Virus record (IMG/VR): IMGVR_UViG_3300031996_000006
Location: 1-59,849 of that record
DNA from: a virus
Lineage: Duplodnaviria; Caudoviricetes
Length of the DNA: 59,849 nucleotides
Strand: one strand, 5' to 3'
The notes below the pieces were generated by a model. It did not search any database, was not told the DNA's origin, and was given only the letters and a program-made list of their open reading frames with translations. Shown here in pieces: positions 2,696 to 45,388 of this stretch. Positions within the stretch are counted from its first letter, which is position 1. Every line of letters starts with the position of its first letter. Position numbers and translations under genes: made by a program.

Positions 2696-4238
2696 AGACG
2701 CTTTTGACCCGCTTAATTACGCAATTGCTCAGCTAGAGGAACAAGTCAATCCGCTTGACCCTGTGGATTGGGCCAAAAGAAAGGCTGGTATCCACCTGTG
2801 GTCGAAGCAGCGGGACATCATCCATTCAATTCAGGCAAACAAGAAGACTGCCGTGCAATCAGGGCATGGTATTGGAAAGTCTCTGACTGCATCGGTTGCC
2901 GCGTCGTGGTGGGTCGACACCCATCCACCCGAGGACACACTAGTTGTATCCACAGCTCCCTCGGTCAAGCAGGTTCACGCGATTCTGTGGGAAGAGATTC
3001 GTAAGATCCATGGGCGCGCGAAGCTTCCTGGGGAAGTGCAGATCTCGGATAACTGGATTATCGGTCGTCGTCTCGTTGGTTTTGGGCGGAAGCCACAAGA
3101 CCACGACCGTGACGCTTTCCAGGGTCTCCACCGTAAATACGTTCTGGTCATCCTGGACGAGGCTTGCGGCATCCCCGAATGGCTTTTCCTGGCGGCTTCC
3201 GCGATCACGACTGGTGATCACTGCCGAATCCTCGCAATTGGAAACCCCACCGACCCGTCGTCCTACTTTCGAAAGGTTTGTCGGCCGGGTAGTGGTTGGA
3301 ACACAATCAAAATATCGGTCCTGGATAATCCACGTTTCACGGGAGAGTACCTACCACCCGAAGTAATTGAGGACCTGACCGGACCGAACTGGGTTGAGGA
3401 AAGTAAGGTCGAACTTGGAGAAGGAAGTCCGCTTTGGAAGGCGAAGGTTGAGGGAGAATTCCCCAACCTCGACGAGTTCTCGGTTATTCCTGTCGGTTGG
3501 ATTGAGGAAGCACAGAATCGTTGGCTCGCCTGGGAAGAAGAGACGGGTGGTCGTCCTGATCCTGAGAGTCGACAAATTATTGGAGCTGACATTGCGCGTT
3601 TCGGTAGTGATAAAACCGCCTTCGCTTACCGATATGGAGATGTAATCACCAAGGTAGAGACCATGCCCAAGCGAGATACAATGGGCACTGCTCAAATGCT
3701 GGCACGTAAATTGCGTGTCGGCTTAGGTGATATGGCTGTGGTCGATACCAACGGTGTCGGTGCTGGTACGTATGACGCCTTGCGTAAGACACAGCATTAC
3801 GCAATGGGTGTGAACGTTGGTAACCGAACCTCCCTGGTCGACTCCACGGGTCAGATTGAATTCTACAACCTCCGTGCAGCTCTCATGTGGCGCTTGCGAG
3901 AGCGATTGGACCCTGCACGAAATCCAACCTTGTGTCTTCCTCCGGATGACCAACTCACTGTGGATCTGTCGGCCCCACGCTGGAAGACAGTGCCCGGTGG
4001 AAAGGTTGTTATCGAATCTAAAGATGACATGCGAAAGCGGATCGGACGATCCCCCGACAAGGGAGACGCTGTAGCCCTTGCAATGTGGGCATCCGCAGGC
4101 GGTGTATTGCTCGACACAGACACCGCAGCTTTCGAATGGGATACCAAGGCTCGTGATGATGGTTCCGGGGAACTTGCTATAGACTGGGGCGAGCTTGTAG
4201 AGGACCCATTTAGCTTTGCCGATTTCGAAATCAGTTAG
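2685..4238 (+). CDS. terL: Terminase large subunit
   Basis: Walker A SGHGIGKS, Walker B VILDEACG, GNP motif, nuclease GADIARFGSDKT and SPDKGDA. Confidence 0.95.
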   Translation: MPRKDAFDPLNYAIAQLEEQVNPLDPVDWAKRKAGIHLWSKQRDIIHSIQANKKTAVQSGHGIGKSLTASVAASWWVDTHPPEDTLVVSTAPSVKQVHAILWEEIRKIHGRAKLPGEVQISDNWIIGRRLVGFGRKPQDHDRDAFQGLHRKYVLVILDEACGIPEWLFLAASAITTGDHCRILAIGNPTDPSSYFRKVCRPGSGWNTIKISVLDNPRFTGEYLPPEVIEDLTGPNWVEESKVELGEGSPLWKAKVEGEFPNLDEFSVIPVGWIEEAQNRWLAWEEETGGRPDPESRQIIGADIARFGSDKTAFAYRYGDVITKVETMPKRDTMGTAQMLARKLRVGLGDMAVVDTNGVGAGTYDALRKTQHYAMGVNVGNRTSLVDSTGQIEFYNLRAALMWRLRERLDPARNPTLCLPPDDQLTVDLSAPRWKTVPGGKVVIESKDDMRKRIGRSPDKGDAVALAMWASAGGVLLDTDTAAFEWDTKARDDGSGELAIDWGELVEDPFSFADFEIS

Positions 4239-4248
4239 GTCGTAAGTA

Positions 4249-5976
4249 ATGACGATCTATAACAACTATCAGGCATCCGGATTGAATTCCGCAGAGACGC
4301 CTGGTAATTCGACCACGCCTGCTCCCGTCACAGAGCAGATTTATGATGAGGACAATCCACCGGTAGGTGAGCTTGGTAGCTCATTCTCCTATGATTCTCA
4401 GTTCGGTGGATGGCTTGACGGTAATGTTTACGCGCCTGCGGAGCCGTCGCTAGCCGACTACCACCACATGCTCGATACCGATGGCACTGCCAAGAGTATT
4501 GAGTTGATGCTTGCGTATCCTATTATGGCTGCGCCTTGGTCTATTGAACCTGCTAAGGGTGATACAGGTCAGGCGGAGTTTATTTACGATGCGTTGACAG
4601 CTCTTCCTCATCAGGGCGGTCCTATGACCACCATTGAGGAACTTATTAAGCAGATGTGTAGTGCATTTGTTAATAAGCGAGCATATTTTGAGAAGGTTTT
4701 CAAGGTAAACGACGACGGTAAGATCGTCTATCACAAGCTTGCGTTCCGACCTCCGGAGACGTGCGAGCTTGCCTTGGATGCCCGGACCGCTGAACCTCGT
4801 GGTTTCCGACAGATGCCACTCATTTATCCGTACACGGATTCGAATTCGATCCCGACGATGAATGGTGATCTTCGACCGAACGTGAATGCCCCGGCATCTA
4901 TGTGGGTAGAGGTTCCGTCGGAGCGGGCATTCGTCTATGTTCATGGTTCGTGGCGTGATCCTCTATTGGGCGTCTCCGAAATGAAGGTGCCTTACTATAT
5001 TTACCTTACCAAGCGGAAGATCCGTTGGCTCTGGTATCAGTTCCTTGACCAGACTGCTTTGCCTAAGACTATCGTCCGGAATCAGGATGAGATTCAGGCA
5101 CGGAATGACGCACGGAAGGTGGCGAGCCTTCGTGGCAAATCGGTGTTGGCTCTGGGAGCCGAAACCACAGTAGACCCGTACGAATCTTCGGGTAAGGGTG
5201 CCCAGTATTTCCAGGACGCGCTTCACTTCTGCGATATGGAAATGCTTAACGCTGGGTTGATGGGCTTCCTTCAGCTCACGACGGAGCAGTCCTCGGGTCA
5301 CGGTTCCTATGCGCTTGCTACCACCATGGAGCAAATGTATAACCGCTCCCGGGTGATGATCGCTCTGGACATGGCACGCCAGATCACGAACGAAGTCATC
5401 GGCCCTCTGATTGCCTACAACTTCGGTGTGAAGGCGCCTGTTCCGCGTTTCAAGTTCGGGCCACTCTCGAAGGAAAACGACACCGCTGCGCTTGCTGCGT
5501 TCCAGCAGATCATGGCCGCAACGAATGCCACGGTTCCTGTTGAGTTCTACAACGAACTGATCGGTCGCGTGGCCGGAATCCTGAACCTCGATGCAGGCAA
5601 GGTTGCCAAGGACATCGAGGTCAACGGCTCTCCGCAGCAGACTTCGCTTCAGCAGCTGCAAATTGCGGTCGAAAACTCTCAGCAGATGCTTGAGAATGCT
5701 AAGAGCGCTAACGCGGCGACTCCAGGGATGGGGCCTACCGGTAAGCCTCCCTCGCCTTCCTCCCCGCAGGCGCCAAAGGGGGCCCCAACGCAGGGGCTTC
5801 CTCCGCGTCCTAGTGGCCAGCCGACTTCCGTTGCGGCTCGGGCACAGCAGCAGGGCAAGCCCGGAAACGTTGAGAGCGGGCGACCCGCGCAACCGACTAC
5901 GGCTGGCACTCGGCCTTTCGGAACCAACTCCGTAGCGAACCCATCGCGCGAGAAGAATAAGAAGTACGGTAAGTGA
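4249..5976 (+). CDS. Portal protein (Mu gp29/DUF935-like) with P/Q-rich C-terminal tail
   Basis: Position after terL, size, GSYALA and LIAYNFG..P.F.F motifs. Confidence 0.85.
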   Translation: MTIYNNYQASGLNSAETPGNSTTPAPVTEQIYDEDNPPVGELGSSFSYDSQFGGWLDGNVYAPAEPSLADYHHMLDTDGTAKSIELMLAYPIMAAPWSIEPAKGDTGQAEFIYDALTALPHQGGPMTTIEELIKQMCSAFVNKRAYFEKVFKVNDDGKIVYHKLAFRPPETCELALDARTAEPRGFRQMPLIYPYTDSNSIPTMNGDLRPNVNAPASMWVEVPSERAFVYVHGSWRDPLLGVSEMKVPYYIYLTKRKIRWLWYQFLDQTALPKTIVRNQDEIQARNDARKVASLRGKSVLALGAETTVDPYESSGKGAQYFQDALHFCDMEMLNAGLMGFLQLTTEQSSGHGSYALATTMEQMYNRSRVMIALDMARQITNEVIGPLIAYNFGVKAPVPRFKFGPLSKENDTAALAAFQQIMAATNATVPVEFYNELIGRVAGILNLDAGKVAKDIEVNGSPQQTSLQQLQIAVENSQQMLENAKSANAATPGMGPTGKPPSPSSPQAPKGAPTQGLPPRPSGQPTSVAARAQQQGKPGNVESGRPAQPTTAGTRPFGTNSVANPSREKNKKYGK

Positions 5977-40904: not shown

Positions 40905-40953
40905 AGAAACCCCCGTAGGGCCTCATTTAAGAGGGAATCCTACGGGGGTTTCT
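40905..40953. terminator. Bidirectional terminator at the convergence of the two arms
   Basis: AGAAACCCCCGTAGG / CCTACGGGGGTTTCT stem. Confidence 0.85.
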
Positions 40954-41014: not shown

Positions 41015-41086
41015 TCGGGATGATGGGGTTCGAACCCATGACTTCTAGTTCCCAAAACTAGCACTCTTCCGCTGAGCTACATCCCG
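41015..41086 (-). tRNA. tRNA-Pro(TGG)
   Basis: CGGGATG acceptor stem, anticodon arm CTAGT-TTTGGGA-ACTAG, GGTTCGAACCC T-arm. Confidence 0.92.
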
Positions 41087-41461
41087 TTTGTTTTTGTTGT
41101 ATTTCTTTCCTGCTTCAGACTTAGCCTTTTTACAGGAGTCACATCTACAACCGTACTTACTATATCCCCATGGAGTTCCATGCTGAATCTCTTCCCACTT
41201 ATTGTGACCTCCACCATACTCTTTATTAATTTTGGTTTTTTCAATGTGATGTAACTTGCAAAGAAGCTGACACTTATCCAGTTCAACTACCAAACGATTC
41301 CATGAGATAGCCCAATTTTGCATGATTCCAAATGACTTAGTCTTCGGATCGATGTGATCGAACTGGAGGGCTTCTGTACTACTACAATTAACACACTTGC
41401 CACCAAGGTAGGCGAGCATCTTAGCTTTTCGAATCTGATACTCACTCATGGTTGAGGTCAT
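41045..41461 (-). CDS. HNH endonuclease
   Basis: GGKCVNC...LQFDHIDP...KCQLLCKLHH plus C-terminal HGT..GY...CRC..C; 3' end runs into tRNA-Pro. Confidence 0.92.
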   Translation of the reverse strand: MTSTMSEYQIRKAKMLAYLGGKCVNCSSTEALQFDHIDPKTKSFGIMQNWAISWNRLVVELDKCQLLCKLHHIEKTKINKEYGGGHNKWEEIQHGTPWGYSKYGCRCDSCKKAKSEAGKKYNKNKRDVAQRKSASFGN

Positions 41462-41467
41462 GCCCAA

Positions 41468-41496
41468 AGGCTACCGCAACCAAACCCTGGTGGCAA
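41468..41496 (-). promoter_or_regulatory. Leaderless promoter for the HNH gene: TTGCCA-N17-TAGCCT-N6-ATG
   Basis: Exact spacing read from the sequence. Confidence 0.7.
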
Positions 41497-41518
41497 GTGC
41501 GCTACCAAACTGCGCCAC
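41497..41518 (-). pseudogene. Orphan tRNA D-arm fragment (tRNA-Pro-like)
   Basis: GTGGCGCAGTTTGGTAGCGCAC with no cognate T-arm or acceptor stem. Confidence 0.6.
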
Positions 41519-41618
41519 GGATAGTTACGTGCGTTATTTTCGGAATCGTTTGCACACGACGATCAACATTCCGGCTGATCTTCCGCCCGAGACGCACCCC
41601 TCGGGAGTTTATTAATTG

Positions 41619-41774
41619 TTAATACCAATACCTACGTCCGCCAACCGGCCGTCCAGTCGAGCCAAGAGCAAACAGAATAAGGCCGATCACTAGAAGTGCA
41701 AGACCGATGTACCACAAGATGTGCAATCCGAGAATAATCCCCAGTACCAGCAGAATCAAACCAACGATAATCAT
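41619..41774 (-). CDS. Small two-TM membrane protein
   Basis: MIIVGLILLVLG...GRPVGGRRYWY, an actinobacterial small-membrane-protein pattern; AGGAG RBS. Confidence 0.8.
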   Translation of the reverse strand: MIIVGLILLVLGIILGLHILWYIGLALLVIGLILFALGSTGRPVGGRRYWY

Positions 41775-41907
41775 TTGTACTCCTAATTGGGAGAGTTGGG
41801 CACCGCTACCAGTCACCTTACTACAGGTTTGAGGTTGTCGCTATGCGAACCAACTCTCAAACAGGTAGTTCCCCGGACTGACACCTTTATTGCAATGCCC
41901 AACTCAG

Positions 41908-41980
41908 CGACCCAAACGGGACTTGAACCCGCGATCTCCACCTTGACAGGGTGGCGCTTTACCAACTAAGCTATTGGGCC
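41908..41980 (-). tRNA. tRNA-Asp(GTC)
   Basis: GGCCCAA acceptor stem, CCACC-CTGTCAA-GGTGG anticodon arm, GGTTCAAGTCC T-arm. Confidence 0.93.
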
Positions 41981-41982
41981 TG

Positions 41983-42148
41983 GAATTAGATCACGGGTTG
42001 AGCAGGAACGTTCATAACACAGGCGAAAGGAACCCGGGATGGAATCCTGCGAACGAACCTTAACCGTGGTGCTTCATGCGCACGAGATTGGCCGAAATCA
42101 ATCTCTCCTTACCCGGGACGGAGTTTGACTCCATCCGTGATCTAATTC
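41983..42148 (-). ncRNA. Candidate structured ncRNA B (166 nt)
   Basis: Perfect 14-bp closing helix plus internal hairpins; no ORF; abuts tRNA-Asp. Confidence 0.6.
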
Positions 42149-42167
42149 TTTTTACCTTCTACCACCT

Positions 42168-42379
42168 GGCGTGCCACCAGCTCCCCGGGATCAACCCGAA
42201 GTTTAATGCCTCTCCTTTTCGATGAAACAGGCGAGAGGCTTTCCTGTCTGCCACCCTATTCAGCGAACCACATGTCCGTGTGGTGCGAATAGAGCTCATC
42301 TGAATAAAGTTTTATGTGTCCCGTGTCGGACAGAGGACGGGACCAGCCTCTGCGCTAACTCCCTAGAACCCCGCACGCC
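42168..42379 (-). ncRNA. Candidate structured ncRNA A with H-type pseudoknot
   Basis: GGCGTGC/GCACGCC closing helix, pseudoknot at 42318-42352, further hairpins; no ORF. Confidence 0.55.
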
Positions 42380-42451
42380 CAATGTCTAGACGTATTCTCG
42401 CTCTAGTTTGTCAGTCCTATTGTCAGTCGGGGGGACCTTCTGACATGTTCA

Positions 42452-42481
42452 AGTATAGCAGGCATTTCACGGACTCGTCAA
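42452..42481 (-). promoter_or_regulatory. Promoter TTGACG-N18-TATACT pointing into the ncRNA/tRNA cluster
   Basis: Same hexamers as the 25048 promoter; no downstream ORF for more than 600 bp. Confidence 0.75.
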
Positions 42482-42826
42482 CAGCCCTGGAAAGTGTCCA
42501 CGGTCAACTTCTCTGACAAAATTCCTTACCAATGGATAGTCCCGTAGAGAAATTGGGACTCGCCACAGCGCATGACGTCGGTCATCTGAGTATAGAGAGA
42601 CCCACGCCAAAGAGACACTAGCACACTGCACTCCTGGCAACACAGCTACTAGGTAGATTGAGAGAGGGCACTCGATATCGGAGTATCGACGGCCGAGAAT
42701 ACCATAGCGTGTGAGCCTTCGTGCAATGTGCACTGTCTTGCCTAGTGAATTAAGATGCCCTAGAGCATCCGCCGCGTGGACTCGGGCAATGTCGTTACCA
42801 GGAAGTTCATACAGGGGAGCCGTCAC
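42467..42826 (-). CDS. Hypothetical protein
   Basis: ORF in leftward operon; GILG......CPL..YL motif. Confidence 0.7.
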   Translation of the reverse strand: MTAPLYELPGNDIARVHAADALGHLNSLGKTVHIARRLTRYGILGRRYSDIECPLSIYLVAVLPGVQCASVSLAWVSLYSDDRRHALWRVPISLRDYPLVRNFVREVDRGHFPGLLTSP

Positions 42827-43007
42827 TTACTACTTCTTCCTGCTTTGGGAGGTGGAGACACAGCTCGTTACATTCCGGGTTGGAATACGAGTGTGCGTGT
42901 ACTACTACCATGTAGCCTTCACGCTTAACAAGCTGAGTTGCCTTCTGAACAATCACCTCCCTATCTACACCTTCAGTAATGTAGAACTGGGTCTCAGTAG
43001 CCGACAT
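42807..43007 (-). CDS. Small hypothetical protein
   Basis: Overlapping operon ORF. Confidence 0.6.
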   Translation of the reverse strand: MSATETQFYITEGVDREVIVQKATQLVKREGYMVVVHAHSYSNPECNELCLHLPKQEEVVSDGSPV

Positions 43008-43143
43008 CTTTACTAAGTTCCTCTGCTAGCTCTATCTGTTCCGTTTTGGTTAAGCAACTAGGCCACTCACATGGAACATCGCAGTCATGTGGGAGCATAG
43101 TACAATCAAAATGACAGCCACACTCTAGCCGCTTATCCTTCAT
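42994..43143 (-). CDS. Small Cys-rich protein
   Basis: ATGA coupling to the helicase stop; CGCHFDC...C...C...C. Confidence 0.55.
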   Translation of the reverse strand: MKDKRLECGCHFDCTMLPHDCDVPCEWPSCLTKTEQIELAEELSKDVGY

Positions 43144-44594
43144 TTTACATTCACTACATCCTTTACGGCCTGTGCTTTCTGCCAAATCTTCTTCAAACGT
43201 GGCTCGTCCACGGTGTCATCGGCAATGATATCGATGATCTGACAAGCATTCTTCTGACCGATACGCCAAATCCGGTCCTCTGCCTGCTCATTCACCGATG
43301 GATTCCAGTTACGATCCAAGAAGATGAGGGTGTGGGCAGCAGTAAGGGTAATGGTGGTACCCGCCGCTTTCACTGTTCCAACAAATACGCGTGCCTTCCC
43401 GGATTGAAAGTCCGCAACTGCGGCAACGCGTGCGGTTTGTGAAAGCACTGACCCAGTGATGTGACTTGTCGTGATTCCCGCCTTCTGGCATCGCTCTAGA
43501 ACCATCCCTACAACGTCAAGGAAGTTAGTAAAAACAACGAACTGCTCTTCCGGGTGCTCCTCAATGTATTCCATGAGAGCATCGAGCTTTGGAGAAGGCT
43601 CCAAGATGCGAACCTCAGGACCCTGCGGAGCGTTTTTCGGAAGCTCATCCTGAGGAGTATTGCGATGCTTCTCCCAGAATGCTTCGTACTTTGACCAATC
43701 AACTTCGCACGTGCCCATGGTCATTTGAAGCAACCGCATATACATAGCGATCTTGTGAATGATGACAAGTTCTTGTTCATCATCGCCAAGCAAAGAGCGT
43801 TGGTACTTCTCCATGGAGTTATAGTCACGCCGCTGACGCTTCGTCAACTGCACACGCATTTCAGAATGTGTCTTCTCGGGCATGTCATCGATGACTTCAG
43901 TCAGCGTTCGCCTGATGTAGTACGGACGAATCTGGTCATGCAAGTCACTGATGTTCTGCACACCGTCAATGACCCGGAAGCCGTTAGGATGGGTGTGCCA
44001 CTTCAGGTATTTATTGTAGAAACGCCAGTAAGATGAGAACTGCTTCTTGTAAAGCCAGTTAAGCGGAGACCAGAAGTCTTGCGGCTTATCGTCAGCAGGC
44101 GTACCACTGATAGCAGTGCGGTATGTAGCCGGGATCTTCTTAAAGACTCGTGTGCGCTTGGTCTTAGGGTTCTTTGCGTACTGAATCTCATCGGCAATGA
44201 CGTGATGCCACCTGGGCGGGACCATTAGTCCAGGCAGTAGAGCAAGAGCATTCCAATGCACAATATAGTAATCGAAATTGCAAGCACCAAGATCGAGTTC
44301 CACGCTAAATTGGGAGCGGTCGCCAGGGTCCACCACAAGAATGCGATCAGGAGATACCCCCATCTGCTCCAGGTGCCAGCGCCAGACCGACAGCCCGCCC
44401 TTCTGGCAGACGATGAGTGTCCTAAAGTGACTGTCCTTTGTCGATGGCGTCCACGCTGCACGGATGTCCAGGTCACGTTGTACGCCGGTCAGCGTCTTAC
44501 CAACCCCCATTGAGTCGCCGATAAAGACAGCTGGAATTCCCCTGAACTTCTCCACTGCCATCTTCTGGTGCGGAAGTAGCTCTAGCATCTTCAC
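43140..44594 (-). CDS. SNF2-family (SF2) helicase
   Basis: GDSMGVGKT, DEIQ, SGTP, IRR, W.P...QAEDRIWRIGQ motifs. Confidence 0.93.
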   Translation of the reverse strand: MKMLELLPHQKMAVEKFRGIPAVFIGDSMGVGKTLTGVQRDLDIRAAWTPSTKDSHFRTLIVCQKGGLSVWRWHLEQMGVSPDRILVVDPGDRSQFSVELDLGACNFDYYIVHWNALALLPGLMVPPRWHHVIADEIQYAKNPKTKRTRVFKKIPATYRTAISGTPADDKPQDFWSPLNWLYKKQFSSYWRFYNKYLKWHTHPNGFRVIDGVQNISDLHDQIRPYYIRRTLTEVIDDMPEKTHSEMRVQLTKRQRRDYNSMEKYQRSLLGDDEQELVIIHKIAMYMRLLQMTMGTCEVDWSKYEAFWEKHRNTPQDELPKNAPQGPEVRILEPSPKLDALMEYIEEHPEEQFVVFTNFLDVVGMVLERCQKAGITTSHITGSVLSQTARVAAVADFQSGKARVFVGTVKAAGTTITLTAAHTLIFLDRNWNPSVNEQAEDRIWRIGQKNACQIIDIIADDTVDEPRLKKIWQKAQAVKDVVNVK

Positions 44595-44946
44595 TCTCCT
44601 TTCTAGGTTCCACAGGATCGTGTGGATTGATTAAAGTCTTTCCATCTACGTGGAAGAACTCCATTGTCTCATGGATTTCAGCTTCGATCAAGCGCTGAAG
44701 TGCCCACGTGAAGAAGTCGTGTTCACTGCGGACTACCCACGTCGGGATAAGACTCCGGATATACAGTTTAGTTTTCTCACCAGGTCGGAAAGCATTGTCG
44801 ACCTCGGCTGTGACATAGAAAACCGGTCGGAACATGGTCTCATCCATAAAGACCGTGAAGTTCCAACCGGTTTTGTATGTAATTCTCGATACTGCGAGTT
44901 CTAATTCACTTAGTGAAAGCGGTCTAGGTTGTTCAGTAAGATCCAT
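44497..44946 (-). CDS. Hypothetical protein with E.HE..E motif
   Basis: ITYK.GW.F ... EAEIHETMEFF...NPH. Confidence 0.75.
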   Translation of the reverse strand: MDLTEQPRPLSLSELELAVSRITYKTGWNFTVFMDETMFRPVFYVTAEVDNAFRPGEKTKLYIRSLIPTWVVRSEHDFFTWALQRLIEAEIHETMEFFHVDGKTLINPHDPVEPRKESEDARATSAPEDGSGEVQGNSSCLYRRLNGGW

Positions 44947-45388
44947 CCTTGAATGCTAGCACCATGGAGTACAGGATCACTCCATAGACTGCTATGTCAA
45001 GATAGGTATCTTCTGCCGCTTCGTTCGCCGCTGCATCCAGTCTACCATTCTTCCGAAGAGATTGCAAGCGGGCAAACTTCTGAGCTAAATTAAAGAGGAC
45101 TGCCTCCATTGGACCAAAATTATCTACACCCAGTGTGGCTACAGACATGTGGAAATTACTAAAGGGGTCTCCGTCGAGCGCGTAGTCCTGTCGCTTCTTC
45201 CTGTTCATTTCAACAATCTTAATGCACGCAGACTCAAACGGGTCCGAAGGATCGAGATAGATTCCTCCCTCGGTTGGCTCGAAGATTCCTCGCTCACGAC
45301 GAGTGTTCATATGACTAACAGGTGCCACTTCAGGTTCCTGACTTACCATGTGCTTAGCAAGATTCTGACCAGATACAGCTTCTCCCAT
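44933..45388 (-). CDS. DUF1599 / dATP-dGTP diphosphohydrolase-like (nucleotide-modification-associated) protein
   Basis: KKRQDYA...DPFSNF, K.ARL, EDTYLDIAVY motifs; starts inside the inverted repeat. Confidence 0.75.
   Translation of the reverse strand: MGEAVSGQNLAKHMVSQEPEVAPVSHMNTRRERGIFEPTEGGIYLDPSDPFESACIKIVEMNRKKRQDYALDGDPFSNFHMSVATLGVDNFGPMEAVLFNLAQKFARLQSLRKNGRLDAAANEAAEDTYLDIAVYGVILYSMVLAFKDGSY

Follow-up and report, generated by a model that had tools for sequence, protein, structure and literature searches.

What fills the 166 nt that directly precede the first tRNA gene, a tRNA-Asp, in the genome of an uncultured soil phage? The DNA analysed here, called the window throughout, is a complete IMG/VR virus record of 59,849 bp, about 98% complete by estimate. 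Pfam searches of 84 ORFs identified a Mu-type portal, a family A DNA polymerase, an SNF2 helicase, RuvB and several lysins in the window. The helicase gene lies about 1 kb upstream of the element. Among the lysins is a transglycosylase-LysM protein, and most of the clusters nearest to it belong to Actinomycetota. These clusters, our only lead to the host, suggest a member of that phylum. All the runs listed as containing window DNA are soil metagenomes, and no RNA run is among them.

An initial annotation, made from the letters alone, had described the element as an unclassified structured RNA abutting the tRNA, and its account of the sequence is accurate. GAATTAGATCACGG (41983-41996) pairs with its perfect complement (42135-42148) to form the terminal helix, P1. 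The GAGATTG/CAATCTC, GGAGT/ACTCC and GCAGGA/TCCTGC sequences were all found where they had been placed, as were both CCCGGG sites (42033-42038 and 42112-42117). Read on the minus strand, exactly 2 nt (CA) separate the end of the element from the 5′ end of tRNA-Asp. By our own estimate, 60 kb should contain about 0.09 perfect 14-bp inverted repeats with arms within 400 nt of each other. In the window there are four perfect inverted repeats of at least 14 nt; two of them are hairpins of terminator type, and in one the arms lie 329 nt apart. The element itself is present in a single copy in this genome.

Table 1. Features of the element and of its predicted transcription unit, in window coordinates. 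RNA numbering runs along the minus strand, position 1 being 42148 and position 166 being 41983.
Feature	Position	Strand	Basis
Predicted sigma-70-type promoter: TTGACG, 18-nt spacer, TG-extended TATACT	42452..42481	-	consensus 10/12 plus TG
119-aa ORF, ending at the predicted tRNA-operon promoter	42467-42826	-	coding by codon-position differences
Leader, about 300 nt, conserved hairpins alternating with variable linkers	42149..42445	-	alignment
166-nt element, independent domain closed by the 14-bp helix P1	41983..42148	-	fold, conservation
P1 5′ arm, RNA 1-14	42135..42148	-	invariant in window, L002 and L003
Hairpin A, RNA 17-29	42120..42132	-	pair probabilities
First CCCGGG, RNA 32-37	42112..42117	-	invariant
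Hairpin B, RNA 44-65, variable stem with compensatory changes	42084..42105	-	alignment
Hairpin C, RNA 66-80, short stem, loop variable in length and sequence	42069..42083	-	alignment
3′ core of high conservation, RNA 77-152, containing the second CCCGGG (42033-42038)	41997..42072	-	alignment
P1 3′ arm, RNA 153-166	41983..41996	-	complement of the 5′ arm
CA spacer, adjoining tRNA-Asp	41981..41982	-	sequence
tRNA-Asp (GTC)	41907/8-41980	-	ARAGORN and Rfam, 72.8 bits
DUF6131 membrane-type protein, 65 aa, in the tRNA transcription unit	41619..41816	-	PF19626, phrog_3158
HNH endonuclease ORF	41045..41467	-	phrog_4234, E 4.5e-35
tRNA-Pro (TGG)	41014/5-41086	-	ARAGORN and Rfam
Terminator-like hairpin and T run, part of inverted repeat I6, 3′ of tRNA-Pro	40906..40924	-	sequence

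The element appears to be part of the leader of a tRNA operon. The tRNAs, the element and all genes from 41045 to 45388 lie on the same strand, and the predicted promoter (Table 1) would place a start site near 42445. Its TGCTATACT box is identical in the window, in the two closest relatives found (L002 and L003, introduced below) and in the more distant phage L030, and TGNTATACT occurs at three sites in the window against 0.93 expected by chance. From this arrangement we infer one unit consisting of promoter, leader of about 300 nt, element, tRNA-Asp, DUF6131 gene, HNH gene, tRNA-Pro and terminator. Transcription from the extended -10 promoter (42452-42481, minus strand) to the terminator near 40906-40924 would thus yield an RNA in which leader, element, tRNA-Asp, two small genes and tRNA-Pro follow one another.

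Among the neighbours, the 119-aa ORF is clearly coding, as its differences from L002 are distributed 18/14/56 over the three codon positions; it matches no Pfam or PHROG family and was seen only in the three phages that carry the element. The HNH ORF, which lies between the DUF6131 gene and tRNA-Pro and is missing from L002, probably encodes a homing endonuclease and runs at its 3′ end into tRNA-Pro, sharing the first 42 nt of that tRNA as called. The leader (42149..42445) holds no conserved ORF. Two of its segments deserve mention in their own right. At 42318-42351 (minus strand), overlapping hairpins AGAGG/CCUCU and GUCCCG/CGGGAC would together make an H-type pseudoknot; the segment has no Rfam match, and both of its differences from L002 and L003 fall in the would-be loop. 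At 42208-42239 (minus strand), a 7-bp GCCUCUC/GAGAGGC stem is invariant and its loop varies between the window and L002/L003.

Homologues of the element exist at the same locus in other phages. A search with the SNF2 helicase as query led to two IMG/VR contigs, L002 and L003, whose helicases are 85% identical to that of the window and which carry the element at 3029-3199 and 3209-3380, respectively. The element measures 166 nt in the window and 171 and 172 nt in these relatives, L002 and L003 being separated by a 1-nt indel. In both, the tRNA that follows the element is tRNA-Asn, 3 nt (CAA) away, with tRNA-Asp and tRNA-Pro coming after. Further variants, X5 and X7, come from contigs of two additional soil studies and span the element; in X7, a 1-nt insertion behind 41980 also produces CAA, here in front of tRNA-Asp. 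The gap between the element and the first tRNA is therefore 2-3 nt in front of tRNA-Asp (window, X7) as well as in front of tRNA-Asn (L002, L003). The window lineage is without tRNA-Asn and its spacer (L002 3200-3349, L003 3381-3688), with the element-tRNA junction kept. CCAA precedes both tRNAs in L002, a possible microhomology for a deletion of tRNA-Asn.

The element is strikingly well preserved compared with its surroundings. Between the window and L002, 122 of 129 positions outside hairpins B and C are identical (95%, seven differences). The rest of the leader retains 189 of 280 aligned bases (67.5%), with 32 further gapped columns, and the two upstream ORFs retain 411 of 531 (77%). In the adjacent 119-aa ORF, agreement at third codon positions drops to 63 of 119 (53%). 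Since 95% identity stands against 77% in coding sequence and 53% at third positions, the core of the element is more constrained than the surrounding proteins. The element is thus beyond chance and under selection. Only 1 of 174 positions separates L002 from L003, which leaves effectively two independent lineages, to which the partly seen metagenome variants are added.

Variation is concentrated in the periphery. The stem of hairpin B comprises 7 bp in the window; L002 and L003 have a stem of 8 bp there, and its sequence is unrelated. In hairpin C, the loop grows from 7 nt in the window to 9 nt in L002 and 10 nt in L003. The pair 17-29 of hairpin A is absent in L002 and L003, and the linker 15-17 differs in every lineage. 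In X5/X7, RNA position 2 changes from A to G and keeps a G-U pair with position 165; the other changes fall in linker 15-17, in the loop of hairpin B (two) and in the loop of hairpin C (two). All eight substitutions listed for X5/X7, which are the best-supported differences, are therefore located in a linker or a loop or convert A-U to G-U in P1. Contigs of the runs X10 and X11 cover the tRNA and other parts, the element lying outside their coverage. A coding function was considered and ruled out by the indels, as the 1-nt length difference between L002 and L003 bars an ORF across hairpin C.

Within the 3′ core, only four positions differ from L002 (RNA 105, 110, 133 and 152). Position 133 (window 42016) is the sole substitution within a 9-nt, probably unpaired stretch, which reads UGUUA in the window and UGUCA in L002 and L003. 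These strings contain the anticodons GUU of tRNA-Asn and GUC of tRNA-Asp, each with U before and A after, and both tRNAs are carried by these phages. Under the improbable proposal of a new RNA class set out below, the switch would hint that the core may imitate the anticodon loops of the phage tRNAs Asn (GUU) and Asp (GUC); it may be a coincidence.

Does this conserved sequence fold? On the minus strand the folding energy has a z-score of -4.43, and none of 200 shuffles was as good. In the thermodynamic ensemble, P1 has a mean pair probability of 0.87-0.88 in the window, L002 and L003. Hairpin A (GGAGU/ACUCC) reaches 0.96 in the window and 0.63 in both relatives, and hairpin C reaches 0.95 in the window with 0.01 and 0.16 in L002 and L003. 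Robustness in all three sequences is thus limited to P1 and hairpin A. P1 and the whole domain are retained when the full predicted leader of 466 nt is folded. In contrast to these helices, two proposals of the initial annotation receive little from the ensemble. The GCAGGA/UCCUGC stem has a pair probability of only 0.00-0.07 and is thus not supported. Pairing of CCCGGG with CCCGGG, suggested as a pseudoknot or a dimer contact, is also near 0.00, both sites being invariant across the window, L002 and L003. Candidate helices of the invariant 3′ half all remain at or below 0.34, and none of them varies. The element is therefore best described as a closed domain with two or three secure helices and a highly conserved core.

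Compensatory changes, whose lack would have spoken against the proposed structure, are present in part. Among 55 modelled pairs, 49 are invariant, four are changed on both sides, one is changed on one side and one has an unpaired cell. All four double-sided changes sit in hairpin B in the model-guided alignment. Shuffling the columns 500 times gave covariation as strong as that observed on 11 occasions, and sliding the structure by 1-3 columns left 0-1 pairs changed on both sides. Compensation thus stands for the four pairs of hairpin B and is lacking elsewhere, where the modelled pairs are almost all constant.

The choice of strand requires separate comment. The plus strand folds nearly as well as the minus strand (z = -4.30; 0 of 200 shuffles as good), and consensus folding gives -52.85 for the sense and -54.46 for the antisense orientation. 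Strand choice by consensus energy was accordingly dropped, and this lack of a sense-strand preference is counted against the small-RNA reading preferred below. We take the minus strand as sense because of the orientation of the tRNAs and genes between 41045 and 45388, the predicted promoter and the G-U cells of the alignment. The latter amount to 13 of 162 and become A-C mismatches if read on the opposite strand.

The symmetry of the two strands, together with the perfect 14-bp terminal inverted repeats and a GATC within each P1 arm, is what would be expected if the selected object were DNA, that is, a MITE-like insertion or a protein-binding palindrome serving as an origin or a recombination site. 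MITEs share such terminal repeats; they are, however, found in multiple copies with target-site duplications, whereas the element is single-copy and occupies one identical locus in three phages, and its minus-strand flanks (AAAAA and CAGGC) show no duplication. In addition, no transposase, integrase or reverse transcriptase domain occurs among the Pfam hits of the 84 ORFs scanned. The compensated hairpin and the confinement of changes to linkers, loops and G-U pairs point to selection on a folded transcript, and the element sits between promoter and tRNAs on the strand predicted to be transcribed. We therefore regard a DNA-level function as extremely unlikely.

If the element acts as RNA, it could belong to a known family. 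Rfam (release 15) returned no match to the element at gathering score in a search of the whole window, and no family for it at E<=10 over 41500-42700. With the element alone (41981-42160) as query, one chance-level miRNA hit was obtained (17.6 bits against a cut-off of 88). These negatives uphold its earlier description as an unclassified structured-RNA candidate. GOLLD and ROOL, which the annotation had named as large RNAs of phage tRNA clusters, are absent from the Rfam matches of both window and element. The sole tRNA-model match in 41500-42700 is tRNA-Asp itself. A tRNA- or tmRNA-like RNA with an intron was also tried and rejected, as relaxed ARAGORN with introns allowed made no sense-strand call in the element. 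For a retron msr-msd, no RVT family was found among the Pfam hits of the 84 ORFs. As an antisense RNA with a target in the phage, the element likewise failed, its 25 complementary ten-mers being at chance level (17.6 expected, shuffle maximum 37).

A helix that closes the domain, a junction of several stems with invariant nucleotides and a single peripheral hairpin free to vary recall riboswitches and ribozymes, and the element could be a leader that senses a ligand or signal, or a self-cleaving ribozyme that trims the precursor. Riboswitch and self-cleaving ribozyme families are nevertheless absent from the Rfam matches at E<=10. Furthermore, a riboswitch needs an expression platform that overlaps P1, for which there is no space when the tRNA starts 2 nt past that helix, and a P1 of 14 bp is too stable for switching. 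Such a role appears highly improbable to us.

The element also has few carriers. Motif scans of IMG/VR returned the same two contigs and no further carrier, and scans of GTDB genome contigs gave 0 matches. A blastn search of 41600-42500 against 50,697 GenBank phage records matched the tRNA alone. Searches with the neighbouring genes (SNF2 helicase and 119-aa ORF) revealed no carriers beyond L002 and L003, and the covariance model R1 found nothing in 27 other loci; that search omitted L014 and L027-L029 as duplicates of L004 and L002-L004. The contig numbers of L002 and L003 do not appear in six supplementary files of a catalogue of 10,006 phage RNA candidates (PMC10690425). The element is hence known from three genomes and a few metagenome variants, all belonging to a single small clade of phages from soil. 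Because pattern scans catch near-identical copies only, further members of the family may exist beyond its present carriers.

A more distant phage of the helicase search, L004 (helicase 54% identical), offers observations of its own. It has a tRNA at 3681-3748 that was scored by Rfam (53.7 bits) and missed by ARAGORN. At 4088-4190, inspection by eye reveals another, separate element, roughly 100 nt long, with a closing helix of some 20 bp. A terminator hairpin follows, and its sequence recurs in the tRNA-Asn/tRNA-Asp spacer of L003.

Which role would account for the position, the helix and the conserved core together? Our preferred reading, to which we give slightly less than an even chance, is a stable trans-acting small RNA that is excised from the tRNA precursor, its 3′ end being made by RNase P. 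The observations on which this reading builds are the fold statistics, the conservation, the one compensated hairpin, the position and the promoter consensus. Within the transcript the element would fold alone as a domain closed by the 14-bp helix. Release by RNase P had been proposed from the start. It agrees with the distance of 2-3 nt found in the window, in L002 and L003 and in X7: a cut at the neighbouring tRNA would define where the element ends on its 3′ side. The product would end in ...UUCCA in the window and in ...UUCCAA in L002, L003 and X7, a CCA-like end that was noticed after the fact and carries little weight. The 5′ end may arise from a cut in the A-rich stretch immediately upstream. 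The terminal helix would then guard the product against exonucleases. A partner, protein or RNA, would recognize the core, which is unpaired and nearly free of variation; the most probable partner would be a host factor for tRNA or structured RNA.

A tight helix placed 2 nt from an RNase P site could equally reflect a processing role in cis. In that case the element would be a processing or stability module of the tRNA precursor that is degraded afterwards. Two variants can be envisaged: the terminal helix and the conserved interior guide cutting by an endonuclease, for instance RNase III or RNase E, or the element shields the 5′ end or paces RNase P cleavage of the first tRNA. The constant 2-3 nt to the first tRNA, whichever tRNA this is, agrees with such a module, as do the perfect 14-bp helix, the other conserved hairpins of the leader and the conserved A-rich single-stranded run directly 5′ of P1. 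However, a nuclease site leaves unexplained why some 130 mostly unpaired or weakly paired positions are 95% identical when a peripheral hairpin is free to vary, and a helix of 14 bp falls short of a standard RNase III site. Moreover, the related phage L030 has an RNA of a trans-acting type at the position of the element. We consider a purely cis-acting module unlikely, though it is the alternative to be taken most seriously.

The comparison with L030 bears directly on the small-RNA reading. Its helicase is 49% identical to that of the window and its promoter box lies at 4138-4146. A 170-nt leader is followed by a 134-nt YrlA-like RNA (4318-4451), which ends 10 nt before tRNA-Pro. This RNA scores 30.9 bits against the full YrlA model (E 2.4e-4 in a 1.5-kb search), below the gathering score of 69, and has clear T-arm-like and D-arm-like hairpins. 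It also has a hairpin that resembles the anticodon arm of tRNA-Asp. A second, partial YrlA match at 5502-5557 reaches 28.8 bits, again below the cut-off of 69. The two YrlA-like RNAs flank a tRNA-Pro/Gln/Glu cluster, with a Ro60 gene downstream: the L030 record contains a 556-aa TROVE/Ro60 frame (48.1 bits, above cut-off; G001:C1:40583-40801, locus L043). Taken by itself, L030 looks like it carries an unannotated phage module of Ro60 and Y RNA beside tRNAs. That this operon position holds a small RNA in L030 is counted in favour of reading the element as a small RNA too.

As Chen et al. 2014 (PMC4201824) describe them, YrlA RNAs have three defining features: stem-loops like the T- and D-arms, the motif GNCGAA(N0-1)G, and a Ro60 gene in the vicinity. 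The motif lies near the 5′ end, and Ro60/Rsr is encoded within about 4 kb on the same strand. The same paper reports that YrlA of M. smegmatis can be cleaved by RNase P and can receive CCA, and that Y RNAs escaping bioinformatic detection exist.

The element could accordingly be a very divergent Y RNA that docks on host Ro60/Rsr through its terminal helix and carries another effector domain in place of the tRNA-like one. Like YrlA (RF02553), it is between 100 and 170 nt long, with its ends paired in a long terminal stem around an internal domain. YrlA likewise occurs in actinobacterial phages, and the L030 version, from a phage that encodes Ro60, stands at the same place in the operon, before the first tRNA; the reported Y RNAs that evade detection (PMC4201824) would allow for a missed relative. 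The details, however, differ at nearly every defining feature. YrlA is absent from the Rfam matches even at E<=10 (41500-42700 and 41981-42160), and the Rfam tRNA model and relaxed ARAGORN find in the element none of the permuted tRNA-like domain with T- and D-arms. Its minus strand is without any CGAA, so that GNCGAA(N0-1)G is missing, and its 14-bp terminal stem is perfect and free of bulges. Pfam gave no TROVE hit among the 84 window ORFs, and a six-frame TROVE search gave no match in the 98%-complete window genome or in the L002, L003 and L004 records, and one in L030. Local alignments with the structured regions of L004 and L030 score at shuffle level. On sequence criteria, the element thus occupies the operon position of a Y RNA with no detectable YrlA membership, and we judge a divergent Y RNA to be very unlikely.

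Taken one step further, the preferred reading of a released small RNA leads to a more specific and, as a whole, improbable proposal: the element would found a new class of phage small RNA at the place that Y RNAs take in the tRNA operon of an actinophage. Like its tRNA neighbour, the RNA would mature through RNase P, with a CCA end, and its invariant single-stranded core would serve as a decoy or tether for a host factor of tRNA or RNA surveillance, neither Ro60 nor a tRNA-like arm being involved.

The two branches of these phages provide a natural comparison. One has retained Ro60 together with a Y-RNA-like gene at a certain place in the operon, and the other has there an unrelated, even more conserved 166-nt RNA and no Ro60. 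If the latter is a stable RNA with a host partner, this position would be a swap site for different RNA effectors, and the element would be a small, tractable RNA with which to ask what such RNAs do in infection. If it is a processing signal only, it would be an ordinary lineage-specific leader.

Lastly, the element can be placed among known systems, as phage tRNA clusters repeatedly house non-coding RNAs of open role, including T4 RNAC and RNAD, phage Y RNAs, GOLLD and ROOL. GOLLD and ROOL are non-coding RNAs of phages or prophages, often located near tRNA genes, with sizes of several hundred nucleotides. The element has 166 nt, no Rfam match and no evidence for multimer formation. In dimeric tRNA precursors, a single cut by RNase P forms two termini, the 3′ one of the upstream RNA and the 5′ one of the tRNA. 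The dimeric precursors of phages would resemble the present arrangement, in which an acceptor-like terminal helix lies 2-3 nt before the next tRNA. Their upstream partner is a tRNA, whereas here ARAGORN and Rfam indicate that this place is filled by a non-tRNA. In T4, a pair of small RNAs named RNAC and RNAD, whose role is unknown, derives from the tRNA region, according to two sources (PMC3014915, PMC9697503). They are likewise small RNAs from a phage tRNA region, and the position and promoter of the element fit this picture, its product being a predicted one. By blastn they have no sequence relation to the element, and fold, host phylum and phage type differ. Among the known non-coding RNAs of phage tRNA clusters, the element, a candidate motif, forms a new family in both sequence and fold.
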